From Minisyncoccota bacterium (GTDB lineage: Bacteria; Patescibacteriota; Minisyncoccia; Phycocordibacterales; UBA2100), in assembly GCA_035500505.1 (NCBI GenBank), contig DATJXE010000003.1, positions 267,605 to 331,604 of the forward strand: DNA of 64,000 bases, given 5' to 3'. Below are positions 906-63,795 of the stretch, piece by piece; within the stretch, counting starts at the first letter, position 1; every line of letters starts with the position of its first letter. The position numbers were made by a program, and so were the translations under genes. The notes beneath the pieces were generated by a model that was given only the letters and a program-made list of their open reading frames with translations, was not told where the DNA came from and did not search any database.

Positions 906-1071
906 GTCGGTCTCCTGTCTGGAACTCCCACGGGTACCGCCGTGGTGCGGTTGTTGGCGAAACCAACGCCGCCCGTACTAAACCACAGATTGGTTTACAA
1001 TGGAAGGCGTGGTTTCAAGTTCAAATCTCCTGACATTAAAATGTCTTGGAAAATAAAGAAGAAATTATGAG

Positions 1072-1424
1072 TGGAGGTGGGGAGAATCGAACTCCCGTCC
1101 AGAAAAAAGCACAGGCACGTGTCTACGATGCGTAGTTCATCTCAAGATTTGAACGCGCCACATAAAAGATGAGCAGAAACGAGACGCGTCGAGTCCTTGT
1201 CTTACGCGAGCGTCGGACGCCGCTCGCGAGTGCTTGAAGAATGACGCCCAACGAGCTTACTCAAGCTCTAGACTCGCGGACGGCCGGTTAGGCAAAGGCC
1301 GGAACCGGCGCAAATGCTACTTTGTTCGCACTTGATGTTTTGAATGGGTTTGGAGAGACATTCACTCTCGCATCGCGCGCACAAGCGCCGATTTTCCTGT
1401 CGAAGCCAGTCACCCCCCACCTCC
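1072..1424 (-). ncRNA. ssrA: tmRNA (SsrA)
   Basis: Minus-strand 5' end GGAGGTGGGGGGTGACTGGCTTCGACAGG (tmRNA-like). 3' tRNA-like T-arm GGGAGTTCGATTCTCCC plus acceptor CACCTCC that pairs with the 5' GGAGGTG. ~353 nt; smpB is adjacent. Putative tag ORF GCG AAC AAA GTA GCA TTT GCG CCG GTT CCG GCC TTT GCC TAA (ANKVAFAPVPAFA*). Confidence 0.85.
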
Positions 1425-1991: not shown

Positions 1992-3914
1992 ATGCCGAAC
2001 TCCGACGACAACAAGAACAAAAAGCGCCCGCAAAGCGCTCCACCCCAAGGTCCTTCGATCTGGGTGCAGCTCGCGATCGCAGCGGTTGTGTTCCTCATTC
2101 TCTCGGCGGGATACTCGGCGGTGCGCGACTACGTCTCGCAGAAGAGTGAAACGGTCGCCATCTCACAGATAGCCGACGACATCAACGCCGGCAAAATATC
2201 CTCCATCACGGTCGAAGGGGACACGGTGACCGCGACGTACACCGACGGGACGAAGAAGCAATCGCACAAAGAAACCGAAGACTCGCTCACGCAGACACTC
2301 GTCAACTACGGGCTCTCGCCTGAAAAAATAGCCGCGGTCCAGGTAACGATCCAGGATCAGTCCGGGCTGGAATTCTGGACGCTGGAGCTGCTCCCCATCG
2401 TCATTCCGACGCTCATGATCCTCGGGCTCGTCTGGTACATCACGCGTCAGTTGCGCGGCGGAGGCGGCATGCAAGCGTTCACGTTCGGCCGTTCGCTCGC
2501 GCGGATGATATCACCGGAAGACTCCGCGCAGCGCGTCACGTTCGCCGACGTCGCAGGCGCGAAAGAAGCAAAAACGGAACTCCTTGAGATAGTCGACTTC
2601 TTGAAAAATCCCAAAAAATTCATCCAGATAGGCGCACGCATCCCCAAGGGCGTGCTTCTCATGGGTGCGCCGGGCACCGGCAAGACGCTGCTTGCGCGCG
2701 CGGTCGCGGGCGAAGCGGGCGTGCCGTTTTTCACGATATCCGGTTCGGAATTCGTCGAGATGTTCGTCGGTGTCGGCGCCTCCCGCGTGCGCGATCTGTT
2801 CCTGACGGCAAAAAAGGCGGCACCGGCGATCATTTTCGTGGACGAGATAGACGCGGTCGGGCGCGTGCGTGGCTCCGGAGTTGGCGGCGGCAACGATGAG
2901 CGCGAGCAAACACTGAACCAGATCCTCGTTGAGATGGACGGCTTCGAGCCGGCCGAAAAAGTCATCGTCATGGCGGCGACCAACCGTCCAGACGTCCTTG
3001 ACCCGGCGCTCTTGCGCCCTGGCCGTTTTGACCGCCGCGTCGTCATCGACCTGCCCGATAGAAAAGACCGCGAGGACATTCTCATGACGCATGCGCGCAA
3101 AAAGCCTTTGGGCGCCGACGTGAAGCTCACGGTCATCGCGGAAAGGACGCCCGGGTTCAGTGGCGCTGACCTTGCCAATTTGATGAATGAAGCAGCCATT
3201 CTTGCCGCGCGGGAAAACCGCAAAGAAATAACGCAGTACGACCTCATTCGTTCGATAGAAAAAGTCATGCTCGGGCCGGAGCGCCGCTCGCACGTGTTGA
3301 ACACGAAGGAAAAGGAGATAACTGCATACCACGAAGCCGGGCACGCGCTCGTCGCATCGGTCTTGCCGCACGCCGATCCCGTGCACAAGATCTCCATCAT
3401 CTCGCGCGGCCGCGCCGCCGGATACACGCTGAAACTCCCGCTCGACGAGCGCCGTATGCAATCGCGCAAGGAATTCCTCGATGACATCGCGGTGAGCCTG
3501 GGCGGTTTCCTTGCGGAGAAGACCGTCTTCGGTGACATCACGACGGGAGCCTCGAACGACTTGCAGGTACTGACCGCGCTCGCGCGCAACATGGTCGCGC
3601 GCTTCGGCATGTCGGACAAAATGGGACCCGTCGCTTTTGCGGCAAGCGCGCGGCAAGCGCTTTTCGGCGAGGGCGTCGAAGAGGAAGCGTCGCAGGAAGT
3701 TGCCGCGCAGATAGACGCTGAAGTGAGAAAGATAATCGAAGGCGCGCAGAAGAAAGCGGAGGGTGTTCTGAAGAAGCACCGCAAGACACTGGATGCGATC
3801 GCACAGAGGCTCGTGGAGGTGGAAACCATCGAGCGCGAAGAGTTCGAGGACATCCTGATAGCGCACGGGATCACGCCGAAGAAAAAAGAGGTCATCGAGC
3901 CGCCGCTCGTGTAA
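1992..3914 (+). CDS. ftsH: ATP-dependent zinc metalloprotease FtsH
   Basis: N-terminal TMs; Walker A GAPGTGKT; AAA SRH region; HEAGHAL zinc motif. Confidence 0.95.
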
Positions 3915-7913: not shown

Positions 7914-7977
7914 CCGCCCGTAGCTCAATTGGTTACCTGCCTGCCGGCAGGCAGGGAGCACCGAGCTTATGATTGGC
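7914..7977 (+). other. 5' half of an interrupted tRNA paralogue (acceptor, D-arm with 20-nt palindromic insertion, anticodon stem 5' strand plus CTTATG)
   Basis: CCGCCCG TA GCTC AATTGGTTA [CCTGCCTGCCGGCAGGCAGG] GAGC A CCGAG CTTATG; nearly identical to the intact tRNA at 8080-8153 apart from the insertion and compensatory stem changes. Confidence 0.5.
7937..7956. repeat. perfect 20-nt palindrome CCTGCCTGCCGGCAGGCAGG inserted in the tRNA D-loop
   Basis: Direct reading; a related palindrome is at 46847-46862. Confidence 0.8.
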
Positions 7978-8041
7978 AGCGAGTGGTCATTGAAAATGTG
8001 TGTCCGTCTGTAAGCACAGCTTTCATACGGGGCGCTCGGAA

Positions 8042-8068
8042 AAAATGAGAATATGGTATTCTCATTTT
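8042..8068 (+). terminator. AT-rich perfect hairpin followed by T-run
   Basis: AAAATGAGAATA tgg TATTCTCATTTT then GTT; lies between the 5' tRNA half and the nested tRNA. Confidence 0.4.
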
Positions 8069-8079
8069 GTTCCTCGCTA

Positions 8080-8153
8080 CCGTCTGTAGCTCAATTGGTT
8101 AGAGCACCGAGCTTATACCTCGGGGGTTCCTGGTTCGAGTCCAGGCAGACGGA
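8080..8153 (+). tRNA. tRNA with anticodon UAU (Ile, AUA-decoding)
   Basis: CCGTCTG TA GCTC AATTGGTTA GAGC A CCGAG CTTATAC CTCGG GGGTT CCTGG TTCGAGT CCAGG CAGACGG A; canonical cloverleaf, anticodon loop C-U-UAU-A-C. Confidence 0.8.
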
Positions 8154-8197
8154 CAGACATTTTCACTTGACCCGAGCGAACCAATCACACGAAGTAT

Positions 8198-8233
8198 CCT
8201 CGGGGGTTCTTGGTTCGAGTCCAAGCGGGCGGA
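8198..8233 (+). other. 3' half of the interrupted tRNA paralogue (anticodon stem 3' strand, variable loop, T-arm, acceptor 3' strand)
   Basis: C CTCGG GGGTT CTTGG TTCGAGT CCAAG CGGGCGG A; acceptor CGGGCGG pairs perfectly with CCGCCCG at 7914-7920 and the T-stem CTTGG/CCAAG is self-consistent. Confidence 0.5.
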
Positions 8234-32832: not shown

Positions 32833-32999
32833 CCCCGCGGCCACGCTTCAAAAGCCAACTTGGGAAAGCAAGGTTGAACCTTGCACGGTCGATATCCACA
32901 GGGTACGGCGCTTTGGTGCAACGTTCCTATATAATATCTTCATAAACCTGTAAACCAGGGGACTATTTATAAGCGTCATTACTAATCATTTATAAACAC

Positions 33000-45152: not shown

Positions 45153-45235
45153 CGAACCGAACTGTGACAAAACGATGCCCCGCCCGGGCATCGTTTTGTA
45201 CGCGCACTGCAACAAACAATGGGATCGAATTTGTG

Positions 45236-45263
45236 TGCGGGGGCGGGACTGGTCAGGGATAAT
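45236..45263. repeat. partial direct copy of the tRNA-fMet 3' end (TGCGGGGGCGGGACT) plus GGTCAGGGATAAT
   Basis: 15/15 identical to the tRNA 3' terminus at 45432-45446 (plus-strand view); 190 bp beyond the tRNA 3' end; followed by an 11-bp perfect hairpin (45261-45286) and the 20-nt palindrome GTCGCAAAAGCTTTTGCGAC. Confidence 0.6.
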
Positions 45264-45390
45264 TCGTTCGCCGTCGCGAACGAATTTCCACGACCCTGGC
45301 TCGCCGGTCGCAAAAGCTTTTGCGACATGGCTCCGCCTTGCAAGTCCCGACGAGAAGCGCGCAGGCGCTTCTCTCCCCACGCAACAGCAA

Positions 45391-45431: not shown

Positions 45432-45506
45432 TGGTTGCGGGGGCGGGACTTGCACCCGCGACCTCCAGGTTATGAGCCTGGCGAGCTACTACTGCTCCAC
45501 CCCGCT
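45432..45506 (-). tRNA. tRNA-Met (CAU), probable initiator
   Basis: AGCGGGGTGGAGCAGTAGTAGCTCGCCAGGCTCATAACCTGGAGGTCGCGGGTGCAAGTCCCGCCCCCGCAACCA; unpaired 1:72 (A.A) and encoded CCA. Confidence 0.85.
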
Positions 45507-45754
45507 ATCAAAGAAAGACCATTATACGCTCGCGAGAGCCCGGAAGCAAACGGCATTTTTTCCTGAAATGAAGGCGTTTTTCGAACGTCATTGCATGCAC
45601 ACCGTTCGCAAGTTGCGCAAGGTTGAACCTTGCAGAAGGGGACTTGTGAAATATCTCTTAAGAGGCGCGTTGTACTAGACGCACGAGGGAAGCCTCGGAT
45701 CCGCCTCTTGGGAGGGTTCATGGACGGCGTGATCTTAGCAATAACATTCAACCT

Positions 45755-46729: not shown

Positions 46730-46777
46730 GGTTCAGCAATATACCACTACTTTGTATAAAGGCAAGTTTTTTCGGTA

Positions 46778-46805
46778 TCGGGGGCGGGATTCGGTCACAG
46801 ATAAC
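46778..46805. repeat. second partial copy of the tRNA-fMet 3'-end repeat (TCGGGGGCGGGATTCGGTCACAGATAAC)
   Basis: Aligns with 45236-45263 (CGGGGGCGGGA[C/T]T-GGTCA[G/C]...GATAA); the downstream sequence looks like a degraded tRNA with an expanded T-loop. Confidence 0.55.
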
Positions 46806-46846
46806 CCGCATGCCGCCGTACGCGGGTTTCCGCGACCCCGCCTCGC

Positions 46847-46862
46847 CCTGCCGGCAGGCAGG
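46847..46862. repeat. palindrome CCTGCCGGCAGG(CAGG), relative of the 20-nt D-loop palindrome at 7937
   Basis: Direct reading; flanked by further hairpins (TTTTGCttagtgGCAAAA; GCGCATC...GATGCGC). Confidence 0.6.
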
Positions 46863-46953
46863 GGTTTTGCTTAGTGGCAAAACATCGCTCCGGCCTTCGA
46901 ATCCCACACGCGCATCGGGCAGGCGATGCGCTCCTCGCACGTCACTTCGTTTG

Positions 46954-47027
46954 TGTCGGGGGTGGGATTCGAACCCACGACCTAGCGCTTATGAAACGCT
47001 CGCTCTAACCGACTGAGCTACCCCGAC
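46954..47027 (-). tRNA. tRNA-Met (CAU), elongator type (could alternatively be Ile2-LAU)
   Basis: GTCGGGGTAGCTCAGTCGGTTAGAGCGAGCGTTTCATAAGCGCTAGGTCGTGGGTTCGAATCCCACCCCCGACA; paired G1:C72. Confidence 0.88.
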
Positions 47028-47234
47028 AAGCTGAGGAGCAAAGTGAGAATAACACATTTGCGCAAGGGGGGCTCGGCCAAGAACAAATCTTGCTTCCGTC
47101 GCAGCAAGATTTTTCTCGGCCCTGATTTTGCGACCCATTCTACTGAATGGGTACCCCGCAAAATCTTTCGAGTCCCGCTGCTCGGCGGCAAAAATATAGT
47201 CACCCGAAGACATGCTTCGGGTTCCTTATTTTTG

Positions 47235-47308
47235 CGCGAGCGGCGGGACTCGAACCCGTAACCTCTCCCGTGACAGGGGAGTGCTCTAACCAGTTGAGCT
47301 ACGCCCGC
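47235..47308 (-). tRNA. tRNA-Asp (GUC)
   Basis: GCGGGCGTAGCTCAACTGGTTAGAGCACTCCCCTGTCACGGGAGAGGTTACGGGTTCGAGTCCCGCCGCTCGCG. Confidence 0.9.
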
Positions 47309-60894: not shown

Positions 60895-60918
60895 CGTCCG
60901 CCTGAGGCGGACGTTTTT
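60895..60918 (+). terminator. rho-independent terminator
   Basis: CGTCCGCC tga GGCGGACG followed by TTTTT. Confidence 0.75.
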
Positions 60919-60990
60919 GGGAGATCGTCTAATGGCAGTCGCCTCCACGGCGACCCGCCGCAAGGGCGGGGACAACTGTCCGCGTTACCG
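60918..60990 (+). pseudogene. degenerate 5' copy of tRNA-Gln with 34-nt hairpin-forming insertion in the D-loop
   Basis: TGGGAGATCGTCTAATGG (identical to the first 18 nt of the tRNA at 61008), then CAGTCGCCTCCACGGCGACCCGCCGCAAGGGCGG, then GGACAACTG (matches tRNA positions 21-29), then divergence; no 3' acceptor strand. Confidence 0.55.
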
Positions 60991-61007
60991 ATCTTCCGAA
61001 GAAACAT

Positions 61008-61078
61008 TGGGAGATCGTCTAATGGTAGGACAACTGACTCTGGATCAGTTAATCTAGGTTCGAGTCCTAGTCTCCCAG
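61008..61078 (+). tRNA. tRNA-Gln (CUG)
   Basis: TGGGAGATCGTCTAATGGTAGGACAACTGACTCTGGATCAGTTAATCTAGGTTCGAGTCCTAGTCTCCCAG; U1:A72 as in many bacterial tRNA-Gln. Confidence 0.85.
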
Positions 61079-62674
61079 CAGAGTTGGACTTTGAGAGCAG
61101 GTTTGCTCGAAAAGTCGTTGTTTTTCCTTGGTATCTATCGGTTCGAACCGTTTGTGTATCTCGCGCACCTCGTTTGAGATTTTCCTGACCGGGAATAGAC
61201 AGTTTTCCGTATCAATGCTCAGTATTTTGTTTTTGACCGTGAGGTTCGAACCGAGAGCTGCCAGAATGCTGCGACGCACCTCGAGGTTACCTTTCTCCAG
61301 CTTCCACTTCGCTTGTTCGATGAACGCGAACATCTCATCGGCTGTGTTCGCCCAACGCTCCACGCGCTCGGTCGTATTGTCGTAGTTGCTATCAAGCTGT
61401 TTCTTTTCGGCAAGTAGCTTCGCTTTCTTTTCCGCGTACTCCTCCGGCCCAATCTCTCCGGCGGCACGCATGTCGGTCAGGCCGTCGAGTTTTGCGAGAC
61501 ACGTCTTGTATGCCTTTTGTTGCGTTTGCACAAGCGCGTTACGTTGCTGGGCCTCTTTCGCATTCTGCTCCCTGAACCATTTCATCGCGAAGCTGTGGAA
61601 CTCCGGCGGGATCTCGAGCCGGTCGATCTCAGCGACGATTTGCTCCTTGAGTTTGGTTTCCTCAATACTACCTTGCGAACAGTCCGGCTTGATGCGTTTG
61701 GTGCAGTGATAGTAGACGTATCGGTGGACCTTGCCATTTTTCGGTCGCTTGAACTTCAGCTCGGCCGTGATAGCAGCACCGCACTCTCCGCAGCGCATCA
61801 TGCCGACAAAGTCGAACACATGAGTTTTTGGGCGCGGCCGGCCTTTGCGTCCGAGGATGACTTGAACTCGGTCAAACTCCTCCTCGGTGATGATGGCTTC
61901 GTGATTGCCGCGATACCAGTTGCCGGTCTTGAGCGGATACTCGAACATGCCATAGTAGACCGGGTTCGAAAAAAGATAGTACAGCGTGTTCCGGCTCATT
62001 TTCTTGCCGTTCGGCATGCGGAAACCCCAGACCCCATTCACCTCATTCAAAAGCTGCGGAACAGTGTAGGTGCCGGTCAGCATCAAGTCCCACATCTTTC
62101 TCACGAGCGGTAGTCGTTCAGGATCGCTCAACAACTTCTTGCTGCCGCGGGGAGTATGTTTGTCGTTCATGTAACCGACCGGCGCGTGGTTCGGCACGTC
62201 GCCGAGTTTCGCTTTCTTTTCGAGACCGCGCTTCACGTCTAATCCTTTTTTGTCGTTCTCCATTTTGGCTTGGCCGCAGGAGAGCGAGAGCATGAACTTG
62301 TCTATCGGAGTGTTTCGGAACGTCTGGCCCGGCGTGACTATCTCGCGGAGTTTGTCGCGGTCCATGAGGTCGATGAGTAGTGCCGCGTCCATCGCGTTGC
62401 GTGAGAGGCGATCAGCGTGCCACACGATGATGCCTTGTATTTCGCTGCGCTCTATGGCGTGCAGCATGTCGGAGAACCGCGGGCGATGGTTCGCCACCTT
62501 GGCCGACTTCGCCTCGCTGAACACGTGCTCGCTTTTTATTTTCGCACCGAGCGACTTCGCGATCTCCTCCGCTTTGTCGGCTTGCGCGTCGAGTGAGAGC
62601 ACCTGCCGGTCCTCGCTTTCAGTGGACTTGCGGCAGTAGGTTCCGTATTGGAGTTTAGTAGCTGTATCCTTCAT
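61067..62674 (-). CDS. large serine recombinase
   Basis: N-terminal resolvase catalytic domain (YCRKSTESEDRQ...SLDAQ), recombinase domain, zinc ribbon (CGECGAAI...YYHC), C-terminal coiled coil; 3' end overlaps tRNA-Gln by ~12 nt on the opposite strand. Confidence 0.9.
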   Translation of the reverse strand: MKDTATKLQYGTYCRKSTESEDRQVLSLDAQADKAEEIAKSLGAKIKSEHVFSEAKSAKVANHRPRFSDMLHAIERSEIQGIIVWHADRLSRNAMDAALLIDLMDRDKLREIVTPGQTFRNTPIDKFMLSLSCGQAKMENDKKGLDVKRGLEKKAKLGDVPNHAPVGYMNDKHTPRGSKKLLSDPERLPLVRKMWDLMLTGTYTVPQLLNEVNGVWGFRMPNGKKMSRNTLYYLFSNPVYYGMFEYPLKTGNWYRGNHEAIITEEEFDRVQVILGRKGRPRPKTHVFDFVGMMRCGECGAAITAELKFKRPKNGKVHRYVYYHCTKRIKPDCSQGSIEETKLKEQIVAEIDRLEIPPEFHSFAMKWFREQNAKEAQQRNALVQTQQKAYKTCLAKLDGLTDMRAAGEIGPEEYAEKKAKLLAEKKQLDSNYDNTTERVERWANTADEMFAFIEQAKWKLEKGNLEVRRSILAALGSNLTVKNKILSIDTENCLFPVRKISNEVREIHKRFEPIDTKEKQRLFEQTCSQSPTLLGD

Positions 62675-62688
62675 ACCTTCATTATGCG

Positions 62689-63795
62689 CTATCTTCGCGC
62701 GAGAAGCCGCTCCAAAATCGCCCTCTCTGCGTCAGTGAGGGGATAACCGCTGCCTTCGTTGGCTTGATAGTCCTTGAGTTTTTGTACGATGCGAACCGCA
62801 TCCTCCTCGCTCATGCCGCCGTAACCGTAGGAGCCAAAGGTGGTAGCGATATTCTCGTGCCCGAGGTTCAAGCTGATGGCGCGTTTTTCCTCCTCGGTGA
62901 GGCGCGTTTTGCTCATCATGCTGACGATGAGATGCCGGAATGAGTGGGGGTGGAAGTATCGCACTCCCGCATCGTGACACCTTTTTTCGAAGATCTTGCG
63001 GGCGGCATCCGTGCCATTCCAAAACGCTTTTCCCACATCGTCTTTGCTGTATCGCACCGAGCCCGCGTCGTGCAGTGTTGCAGGAAAGATGGGATCGTTC
63101 GGGCCGTACCCTTTTCGTTCAAGATACTCGTACCACTCCACGAAAAAGCGCTCTGGGTCGTCCCACCCGATCGGGAAGAACGTCGTGAGTATCGTTTTTG
63201 AGTTTTTGGTGTGAACGCCGTCGCCGGGATTTTGGTGTATCAGTCGCTTCTCTTTGTCGAAGTTCTTCATTCGGAGCGAAATGATCGCGAAGATGCGGCA
63301 GCCGGTGGTGAGGGCAAAACTGATCATCGCACGGTCGCGCCTGTCGATCTCGTTCTTTATCTCGATACCCTCGATGATCTTCTTTGCATCGTCGAAGGAG
63401 GGCGTTGCTCGCGTCGTGCCCGCCCGAGCGATGCGGGCATCACCCTTCGAGAGGCGCAAAAACTCGATCTCATTTTTGAGCACCTTGTTGCGATAGTCGG
63501 GCTGGCCGGAGAGCCATGTAAAGAAGCGCTTGAGGCGGCGCAGGTAGTTGTATTGCGACACGAGCGTGAGTTTGCCCGCCACCGTTTTGGTCTCGCGGGT
63601 TTTGAGCCAATCTCGGAAAGAAGTCGCCGTGGTTTTGTTGAAGGAACCGAAGTCCTCGTTATCGGTGAAGGTCTGCCACTGGCTGATGGCTTCCGCGAAC
63701 TTACTGACCGATGCCGGGGCGAACCCTTCGGCCCCCCGAAGATGCTCAAAAAACTCTCGCTTGAGCTGCTCGTTTTTGTAACTTGTTTTTGTCAT
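62689..63795 (-). CDS. tyrosine recombinase/phage-type integrase
   Basis: N-terminal SAM-like core-binding domain; catalytic R...HxxR...Y pattern (HPHSFRHLIV; GHENIATTFGSYGY). Confidence 0.9.
   Translation of the reverse strand: MTKTSYKNEQLKREFFEHLRGAEGFAPASVSKFAEAISQWQTFTDNEDFGSFNKTTATSFRDWLKTRETKTVAGKLTLVSQYNYLRRLKRFFTWLSGQPDYRNKVLKNEIEFLRLSKGDARIARAGTTRATPSFDDAKKIIEGIEIKNEIDRRDRAMISFALTTGCRIFAIISLRMKNFDKEKRLIHQNPGDGVHTKNSKTILTTFFPIGWDDPERFFVEWYEYLERKGYGPNDPIFPATLHDAGSVRYSKDDVGKAFWNGTDAARKIFEKRCHDAGVRYFHPHSFRHLIVSMMSKTRLTEEEKRAISLNLGHENIATTFGSYGYGGMSEEDAVRIVQKLKDYQANEGSGYPLTDAERAILERLLARR

Follow-up and report, generated by a model that had tools for sequence, protein, structure and literature searches.

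To begin with, the window analysed here, meaning the whole stretch of 64,000 nucleotides (nt) taken from contig DATJXE010000003.1 of a Minisyncoccota bacterium, was found to carry eight transfer RNA (tRNA) genes and one transfer-messenger RNA (tmRNA) gene (ARAGORN, Rfam), together with two displaced tRNA copies, one of tRNA-Ile and one of tRNA-Gln, each interrupted by hairpin-forming DNA. Both lie upstream of an intact tRNA gene on the same strand (Ile, 7914–7970 before 8080–8154; Gln, 60918–60978 before 61008–61079), and these interrupted copies, along with a small nuclease cassette that has the same layout in other genomes, are the subject of this report. The initial annotation had placed the two inserts at the same D-loop position, which was borne out by alignment, as both fall between canonical nt 21 and 22. 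It had also described two tRNA genes broken by insertion, a description that had to be corrected, since the interrupted copies are displaced duplicates beside an intact copy rather than once-functional genes that were simply broken. When compared with each other, the Gln and Ile inserts were not related in sequence. The window also encodes a malic enzyme and a recombinase, each with 100% identity to a protein of a metagenome-assembled genome of Candidatus Paceibacterota. The coordinates of all the features are collected in Table 1.

At the Ile locus, the displaced 5′ segment differs from nt 1–22 of the intact tRNA-Ile(UAU) at two positions, both in the acceptor stem, and alignment showed no relationship between what precedes the copy and what precedes the intact gene. 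The 20-nt palindrome previously reported within this copy was recovered, and to it was added a matching 3′ half further downstream (8195–8233). The acceptor strand of this half, CGGGCGG, is complementary to CCGCCCG at 7914–7920 and not to CCGTCTG of the intact gene, and between the outer and the inner tRNA-Ile there are compensatory differences, located in the acceptor stem and, as one pair, in the T-stem. Because the outer 5′ and 3′ pieces pair with each other, they are, as far as the sequence tells, the two parts of an older tRNA-Ile gene that was split in its anticodon loop by about 225 base pairs (bp) holding the intact gene and its leader. Within that leader there are an AT-rich hairpin (8042–8068) and a 9-nt copy of the 5′ end of the inner tRNA-Ile (8004–8012). 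Among the relatives, L003 (loci fetched for comparison are cited by such numbers) presents a plain tRNA-Ile after a malic enzyme gene, and L001 presents a gene for an Mrr-type nuclease followed by an inverted tRNA-Ile whose leader is homologous to the inner leader of the window; judged from these two, the tRNA-Ile locus is unstable. A tRNA-Ile with anticodon UAU is encoded by the lineage of the window as well as by L001 and L003. Such a tRNA is uncommon in bacteria, where AUA is normally read by a lysidine-modified CAU tRNA.

At the Gln locus, the first segment of the displaced copy shows a single difference (T>C) from nt 1–20 of the intact tRNA-Gln(CTG). The insert had been given as 34 nt forming two small hairpins; both hairpins were confirmed (GTCGCC-TCCAC-GGCGAC and CC(C)GCC-GCAAG-GGCGG(G)), and the aligned length came to 32 nt, with 34 being reached when the ambiguous flanking bases are counted. 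As DNA, the insert folds with −12.8 kcal/mol (z −3.1, none of 200 shuffles being as good), and its sequence occurs only once in the window. The similarity of the displaced copy to tRNA-Gln stops after 60978, and here too the sequence ahead of the copy did not align with that ahead of the intact gene. In the spacer that follows, CGATCTTCC (60989–60997) could form a stem with GGGAGATCG, which belongs to the 5′ end of the copy itself, and the fold of 60918–60998 had a z of −2.7, with 1 of 200 shuffles as good. Alignment of the spacer with the 3′ half of the intact tRNA-Gln detected no significant similarity, and a profile search of the spacer detected no GIY-YIG remnant.

Table 1. Positions of the interrupted tRNA copies and of other features in the window
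Feature	Position	Strand	Basis or remark
Displaced (outer) tRNA-Ile, gene nt 1–22 (canonical 1–21), acceptor strand CCGCCCG	7914–7935	+	alignment
Perfect 20-nt palindrome CCTGCCTGCCGGCAGGCAGG, canonical 21/22	7936–7955	.	palindrome search, fold
Outer tRNA-Ile resumed, GAGCACCGAGCTTAT, as far as the anticodon	7956–7970	+	alignment
Inserted leader of the intact tRNA-Ile	7971–8079	+	homologous to the region upstream of tRNA-Ile in L001
Intact (inner) tRNA-Ile(UAU), acceptor strand CCGTCTG	8080–8154	+	ARAGORN, Rfam
Outer tRNA-Ile 3′ half (anticodon loop to discriminator)	8195–8233	+	26 nt at 96% identity to tRNA nt 39–64
Displaced tRNA-Gln nt 1–20 (acceptor 5′ strand, D-stem 5′ strand, D-loop)	60918–60937	+	alignment to intact gene
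32-nt insert GTCGCCTCCACGGCGACCCGCCGCAAGGGCGG, canonical 21/22	60938–60969	+	alignment, DNA fold
tRNA-Gln copy resumed, GGACAACTG (D-stem 3′ strand and anticodon-stem 5′ strand)	60970–60978	+	alignment
Spacer from displaced copy to intact tRNA-Gln (29 nt)	60979–61007	+	fold, alignment
Intact tRNA-Gln(CTG)	61008–61079	+	ARAGORN; Rfam tRNA, 65 bits
Large serine recombinase	61067–62674	-	
Tyrosine recombinase	62689–63795	-	
Multi-hairpin tRNA-like element downstream of tRNA-Met (46953–47027)	46755–46945	-	alignment; ends in a copy of the tRNA 3′ end
Homologous multi-hairpin tRNA-like element downstream of the other tRNA-Met (45432–45506)	45215–45385	-	alignment; ends in a copy of the tRNA 3′ end

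The decisive lead came from locus L008, where TCCGCGGTA[CCTGCCTGCCGGCAGGCAGG]GCTCAGTGGT upstream of tRNA-Asn places the palindrome of the Ile copy inside a 5′ tRNA fragment, which is followed by a small open reading frame (ORF) of the GIY-YIG type and then by the intact tRNA-Asn. The full signature including the ORF was found not only there but also at tRNA-Lys (L045), tRNA-Gly (L114, with a frameshifted ORF), tRNA-Leu (L126) and in a viral contig (L240), and in four further loci the ORF was absent or truncated with the signature otherwise present (L009, L012, L038 and L091). The earlier suggestion that an element or a nuclease is at work was thereby strengthened, as a GIY-YIG-only gene of the UPF0213 family is physically linked to the hairpin in relatives. 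Likewise, the search for further examples, which had been named as the check that could refute the idea, yielded many of them, and the Ile insert proved to be the consensus of the family.

Metagenome contigs were scanned with an alignment of five GIY-YIG proteins, and the 80 loci kept were ranked by similarity to the L008 protein. The palindrome was present with up to 3 mismatches in 43 of these 80 loci, starting 31–72 nt upstream of the GIY-YIG ORF in most of the 43, and the exact 20-mer lay upstream of the ORF in 31. A tRNA was detected within 400 nt in 71 loci, mostly on the same strand and starting 0–35 nt after the ORF match, and a 5′ fragment of that adjoining tRNA was found upstream of the ORF in 50. 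Moreover, a GC-rich perfect hairpin occurred no more than 130 nt upstream of the ORF in 59 loci, compared to 7 in a control window located 300 nt further upstream. In relatives, the complete cassette reads, in order: tRNA nt 1 to x, a GC-rich hairpin (usually CCTGCCTGCCGGCAGGCAGG), tRNA nt x+1 to y, a short AT-rich linker, an ORF of about 80 amino acids and the intact tRNA. The stop codon of the ORF often lies inside the first 10–23 nt of the tRNA (e.g. UAG at nt 8–10), and at least a dozen tRNA amino-acid specificities are represented. In several pairs of cassettes, DNA similarity was confined to the part from the fragment to the tRNA despite more than 1 kb of flank being available. Furthermore, tandem arrays were found in which palindrome and GIY-YIG ORF alternate twice before the tRNA (L147 and L208; also L163 and L193), an arrangement that repeated invasion of the intact copy would give. 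Copies of the tRNA 3′ part were present downstream in 8 of 48 cassettes, and in L166, L181 and L142 a full-length second tRNA copy carried the palindrome only, at the end of the D-loop, with a full-length copy in L233 likewise holding nothing but the palindrome.

The positions of the hairpins were converted to canonical tRNA numbering through the position of the anticodon, which allowed 33 fragments to be mapped. The modal site was 21/22, the boundary between the D-loop and the 3′ strand of the D-stem (15/33), followed by 13/14 or 14/15 (8/33, all tRNA-Leu) and 31/32 (4/33, all tRNA-Arg(TCG)), and the remaining 6/33 lay elsewhere. The hairpin is at 9/10 in L008 and at 10/11 in L038, and it sits in the variable loop of a viral tRNA-fMet; most of the sites are stem-loop boundaries. 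The site-specific process proposed in the initial annotation is in agreement with the modal position, but its restriction to the D-loop is not, given the sites at 9/10, 12/13, 13/14, 31/32 and the variable loop. As 21/22 is the commonest site of the family, the occurrence of both window inserts at the same position is explained, and the identical 20-mer was found at 21/22, as in the Ile copy, in at least 14 independent cassettes of other genomes. Regarding the hairpin itself, double substitutions preserve the 6-bp stem (CCTGTC..GACAGG, CCTGAC..GTCAGG and GCTGCC..GGCAGC), and a 19-nt form also appeared among the variants. A second hairpin type with the stem CCCGCC/GGCGGG was present in L133, L152 and L157, and this minority variant has the same stem as the second hairpin of the Gln insert.

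The ORF of the cassettes, with about 80 amino acids, comprises the GIY-YIG catalytic domain alone (UPF0213, SLX1-like) and has no DNA-binding domain able to read a long sequence. Its best matches in the PDB were the UPF0213 structures 1zg2 and 1ywl (E ~1e-10), followed by SLX1 (E = 3.7e-5), with I-TevI being weaker, and no NCBIfam model matched it. SLX1 cuts branched and stem-loop DNA at the junctions between single and double strands, which fits the placement of the hairpins at stem-loop boundaries. The lack of such a DNA-binding domain and the link to hairpins at stem-loop junctions would be consistent with an enzyme that recognizes structure.

The palindrome was also followed beyond the cassettes. 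The exact CCTGCCTGCCGGCAGGCAGG was found in at least 120 stretches of species-representative genomes, whereas only about 0.5 exact copies would be expected by chance in 596 Gb according to our own calculation from the size of the collection. Its hosts include classes of Patescibacteria, Bacteroidota (among them cultured isolates, such as those of Winogradskyella, Flagellimonas and Flavivirga), Omnitrophota, Planctomycetota, proteobacterial metagenome-assembled genomes (MAGs) and others, and 35 viral contig stretches contained the exact sequence as well. The window has one exact copy and a 16-nt version at 46847–46862, inside the element at 46755–46945, and in 100 shuffles of the window no 20-mer came within 3 mismatches of the palindrome. 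A gathering-threshold Rfam scan of 18 palindrome loci returned only tRNAs, with no family covering the palindrome. An assembly or adapter artefact was rejected, as the 20-mer appears in isolates and in assemblies of many projects, in one recurring architecture and with compensatory variants, and so was an intrinsic terminator, as the hairpin in tRNA contexts is not followed by a T-run. Among the loci examined for solitary copies (L009–L128 in genomes and L209–L243 in viral contigs), the palindrome was seen forming the tip of longer inverted repeats (L087, L121, L027 and L039) and within short tandem repeats (L109, L090, L058 and L209), and the viral contigs held as many as 6 palindromes in one contig of 29.5 kb (L229, L236 and L237). 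Lastly, in L068, a MAG of Thermodesulfobacteriota, the palindrome and a GIY-YIG domain lie around position 3861 within one long open frame, where the palindrome translates as PACRQAG; by our own reading of the sequence, the rest of the frame resembles the specificity subunit of a type I restriction system. This locus suggests that the cassette can also enter protein-coding genes.

Taken together, both window copies are probably relics of selfish cassettes that invaded tRNA genes and whose nuclease ORF has been lost, and they are read as relics because versions with a missing or truncated ORF occur elsewhere, as noted above. The two copies differ in how firmly this can be said. The Ile copy, which is followed by an intact tRNA sharing its anticodon, bears the full cassette signature except for the ORF, and its exact palindrome, modal site and correct layout make it very likely a cassette relic. 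The Gln copy has the correct layout and site and shares only one stem with the family, so that its membership stands as an even question. As for how such a cassette would spread, the nuclease might cut a tRNA gene that carries no interruption, at a stem-loop junction or close to one (mostly 21/22), and the break would be repaired from a copy bearing the cassette. The two homology arms would then be the displaced 5′ fragment, on the left, and the intact tRNA, on the right, so that the nuclease gene would be copied in with a working tRNA kept. The hairpin, situated where the nuclease would be expected to cut the displaced copy, might destroy that site or shorten a direct repeat that could otherwise delete the cassette; alternatively, it may act in the transcript. 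In the window, the nuclease ORFs would have been lost later, leaving the hairpin-bearing fragments beside the intact tRNA-Ile and tRNA-Gln. We infer this homing mechanism from the architecture of the cassettes and from the precedent of SegB, described below.

A number of observations weigh against the above reading. Neither window copy has the GIY-YIG ORF of about 80 amino acids between the fragment and the intact tRNA, and a six-frame profile search of the 64-kb window for GIY-YIG gave nothing better than E = 5; as there is no such gene in the window, the assignment of its copies is based on architecture plus, for Ile, the palindrome. The whole Gln insert had no match in any fetched locus, where both of its hairpins were searched as exact strings; a metagenome scan for tRNA-Gln copies with an insert of 8–38 nt in the 21/22 region returned no match either, and in other tRNA-Gln cassettes the hairpin sits at 12/13. 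The nested Ile locus, which retains the outer 3′ half, is not predicted by a simple two-armed homing process, and we group it with the cassettes that have downstream 3′ copies and with the full-length copies carrying only the palindrome. In addition, the intact tRNA keeps all the target bases within the tRNA, so that the usual logic of immunity to a homing endonuclease does not obviously apply, and the 80 loci were chosen by similarity to the palindrome-linked L008 protein, so that their frequencies describe that subfamily and not the whole of UPF0213. Finally, most palindromes lie apart from cassettes. Among 127 genome palindromes (the copy of the window and 126 from the genome loci fetched), 110 had no tRNA within 400 nt and 17 had one, at least 9 of these 17 showing the cassette layout with or without the GIY-YIG ORF; an ORF of this kind was within 1 kb of only 7 of the 127. 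Among 42 viral palindromes, 1 was linked to a GIY-YIG gene and 1 lay within 600 nt of a called tRNA, with tRNA-like flanking sequence at two further ones (L210 and L240). With most copies being far from tRNA and GIY-YIG genes, the hairpin also exists outside the cassette.

These solitary copies might come from an autonomous miniature mobile hairpin that inserts at stem-loop junctions or into any other hairpins; tRNA genes and GIY-YIG cassettes would then be just two of the places it occupies, and the window inserts would be independent hits on tRNA copies that were already redundant. No homology beyond the 20-mer was found between palindrome loci, tRNA sequences aside, and some palindromes are nested in other copies of the palindrome (L026, L050, L029 and L036). 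Moreover, 19% of the solitary palindromes lie inside larger hairpins at z < −2 (mean z −0.66, p = 3e-6), and the full-length tRNA copies with the palindrome only (L166, L181, L142 and L233) point in the same direction. Short direct repeats flank some of the solitary copies (e.g. 14/14 nt in L217), but no target duplication was seen in tRNA contexts. Repeats of the REP/RAYT or MITE type, with which the palindrome was compared, come in many copies per genome and have terminal inverted repeats with a target duplication and a transposase; for the palindrome, the 64 kb contain the one exact and the one 16-nt copy given above. A fixed place ahead of the ORF, which the palindrome has in the majority of the 43 loci, would not be given by independent insertion, there are few copies per locus, and we know of no enzyme, established or proposed, that is able to move a 20-bp unit. 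On these grounds an autonomous hairpin was considered an unlikely origin of the window inserts.

Less probable still is ordinary decay, by which tandem tRNA duplicates would have become pseudogenes through unrelated indels, with the shared position at 21/22 being a coincidence. It is refuted for the Ile copy, whose 20-mer recurs at the same tRNA position in the independent cassettes counted above, and whose outer and inner tRNAs differ by compensatory changes and are nested rather than tandem. The Gln copy suits it better, given that it lies directly upstream of an intact gene, that its tail can pair with the beginning of the copy, which would be expected of a full-length duplicate in decay, and that its insert is without relatives among the fetched loci. 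By our own estimate, the chance of two random inserts sharing a position in a fragment of about 30 nt is a few percent, which is small, though not negligible. The unrelated regions upstream of the copies and of the intact genes are a further argument against tandem duplication.

The remaining alternative, that the copies are attachment (att)-site scars of the integrative element downstream of tRNA-Gln or of similar integrases, is very improbable: large serine and tyrosine recombinase genes do directly follow tRNA-Gln, the equivalent pair adjoins tRNA-Gln(TTG) in L006 and tRNA-Asn in L008, and in L008 the tRNA is moreover preceded by a 5′ fragment with a hairpin, yet the homology of the element starts exactly at the tRNA 3′ end (..|GCAGAGTTGGAC), L006 has no fragment in the 340 nt available, no recombinase is near the Ile locus, and the scars that integrases leave are usually 3′ fragments, located at the island's far end. 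The island joins at the tRNA 3′ end in all three cases (Gln-CTG in the window, Gln-TTG in L006 and Asn-GTT in L008), and the last four or so codons and the stop of the recombinase are supplied by the tRNA. As the shared sequence begins at the 3′ end, the recombinase island does not account for fragments of the 5′ part, which lie across the gene from it. Duplication of an att site was rejected on the same geometry, with the fragments being 5′ parts located 29 nt (Gln) and 109 nt (Ile) upstream of the intact genes and the junction being at the opposite end of the tRNA. A tRNA intron was rejected as well, as there is no complete exon pair and no match to an intron family in Rfam even at an E-value cut-off of 5; the Gln copy has no recognizable 3′ half, and the outer tRNA-Ile is also divided by a stretch containing a complete tRNA.

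Regarding the rest of the window, Rfam scans at the gathering threshold and by E-value returned only tRNAs, the tmRNA and sub-threshold noise, leaving the multi-hairpin elements uncovered. In L005 the same recombinase pair was found without a tRNA, among methyltransferase and helicase genes, which may be the free form of the recombinase element, and no relatives of the recombinases were found in viral contigs. The two multi-hairpin elements, of some 170–190 nt, both stand beside a tRNA-Met(CAT) and have the blocks GGGAYTYGMAAGGCSGGAGCSATG, GGCGAG and GGGTCGYGGAAA..TTATCNNTGACC in common, and their hairpin stems differ; they look like displaced tRNA copies with several insert modules, one of them in the T-loop. 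In L047, a MAG assigned by its label to Gammaproteobacteria, tRNA-Val is followed by a similar multi-hairpin element that contains the exact 20-mer. About 23 nt of the tRNA-Asp 3′ end (GCCGCCGAGCAGCGGGACTCGAA, on the tRNA strand) recur in inverted form at 47160–47185, downstream of tRNA-Asp (47234–47308, minus strand) and before tRNA-Met (46953–47027, minus strand), and a similar inverted T-loop copy was seen at the start of both Met-linked elements. A related hairpin, GCCTGCCTACGCAGGCAGGC, is present at 1460–1479, between the tmRNA (1069–1417, minus strand) and the gene just upstream, which we presume to be smpB. Lastly, identical 17-nt hairpins (GCAAGGTTGAACCTTGC) were found 12.7 kb apart at 32868–32884 and 45617–45633.

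If the cassette reading is true, the tRNA genes of many phyla, including those of the small-genome Candidate Phyla Radiation (CPR) and of cultured Bacteroidota, host a compact homing cassette that went unnoticed and that solves the invasion of an essential gene by partial duplication of the target and not by splicing. It would also explain a class of tRNA-like fragments that confuse tRNA annotation and assign a function to part of the orphan UPF0213 family. Moreover, a 20-bp sequence conserved exactly across phyla would have a role open to direct testing, and a minimal nuclease directed by structure would be of practical interest. A much bolder proposal, which we regard as doubtful, is that of a selfish system spanning phyla in which the SLX1-like minimal nuclease would recognize the hairpin structure of the tRNA gene and not its sequence, cutting at stem-loop junctions, with the 20-bp palindrome being pasted at the cut. 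The cassette would supply or preserve a working tRNA in the manner of cleave-and-rescue, and the palindrome would also spread alone into other hairpins, including those of phage genomes.

Regarding previous descriptions, neither the 20-mer nor its 14-nt core was found in the open-access literature, nor was an account of bacterial GIY-YIG cassettes with tRNA fragments, although a prior description is possible. SLX1 is a eukaryotic repair enzyme working with SLX4, and to our knowledge it has neither mobility nor a link to tRNA genes. The mobile GIY-YIG ORFs of fungal mitochondria (e.g. in Allomyces atp6) carry a duplicated end of the gene they invade. They resemble the cassettes in that the replacement piece of the target keeps its function and a displaced fragment is left behind; in contrast, they belong to organelles, they target protein-coding genes and what they duplicate is the 3′ end. 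Fungal mitochondrial genomes also contain scattered short GC-rich palindromes, known as GC clusters or double-hairpin elements, which are lineage-specific, whereas the 20-mer of the cassettes is common to bacterial phyla. Among free-standing GIY-YIG homing endonucleases, SegB of phage T4 is encoded in a tRNA gene cluster, its 27-bp recognition site includes a conserved stem-loop motif of tRNA (T-psi-C), and segB is preferentially inherited together with the neighbouring tRNA genes (PMC2330249). The likeness lies in a GIY-YIG nuclease gene among tRNA genes. On the other hand, SegB is a longer protein and phage-borne, and neither a partial tRNA duplication nor a conserved hairpin has been reported for it; the cassette proteins, with their catalytic domain only, are nearer to UPF0213 and SLX1 than to I-TevI and appear in cellular genomes of many phyla. 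In archaea, split and disrupted tRNA genes are reported to involve partial tRNA copies arising from mobile DNA that entered a tRNA gene (PMC3293823). These genes and integrase scars share with the cassettes a partial tRNA beside an intact or complementary copy; compared to integrase scars, which arise by site-specific recombination, the cassette fragments are mostly 5′ parts, lie within a few hundred nt of the intact gene, bear a hairpin and are linked to a nuclease rather than to an integrase. Overall, homing genes of the free-standing GIY-YIG type are known, as are nuclease ORFs that come with a piece to replace part of their target, while the combination of a minimal UPF0213 nuclease, a partial 5′ tRNA duplication and a near-invariant 20-bp hairpin at stem-loop junctions, spread across phyla, is apparently undescribed.

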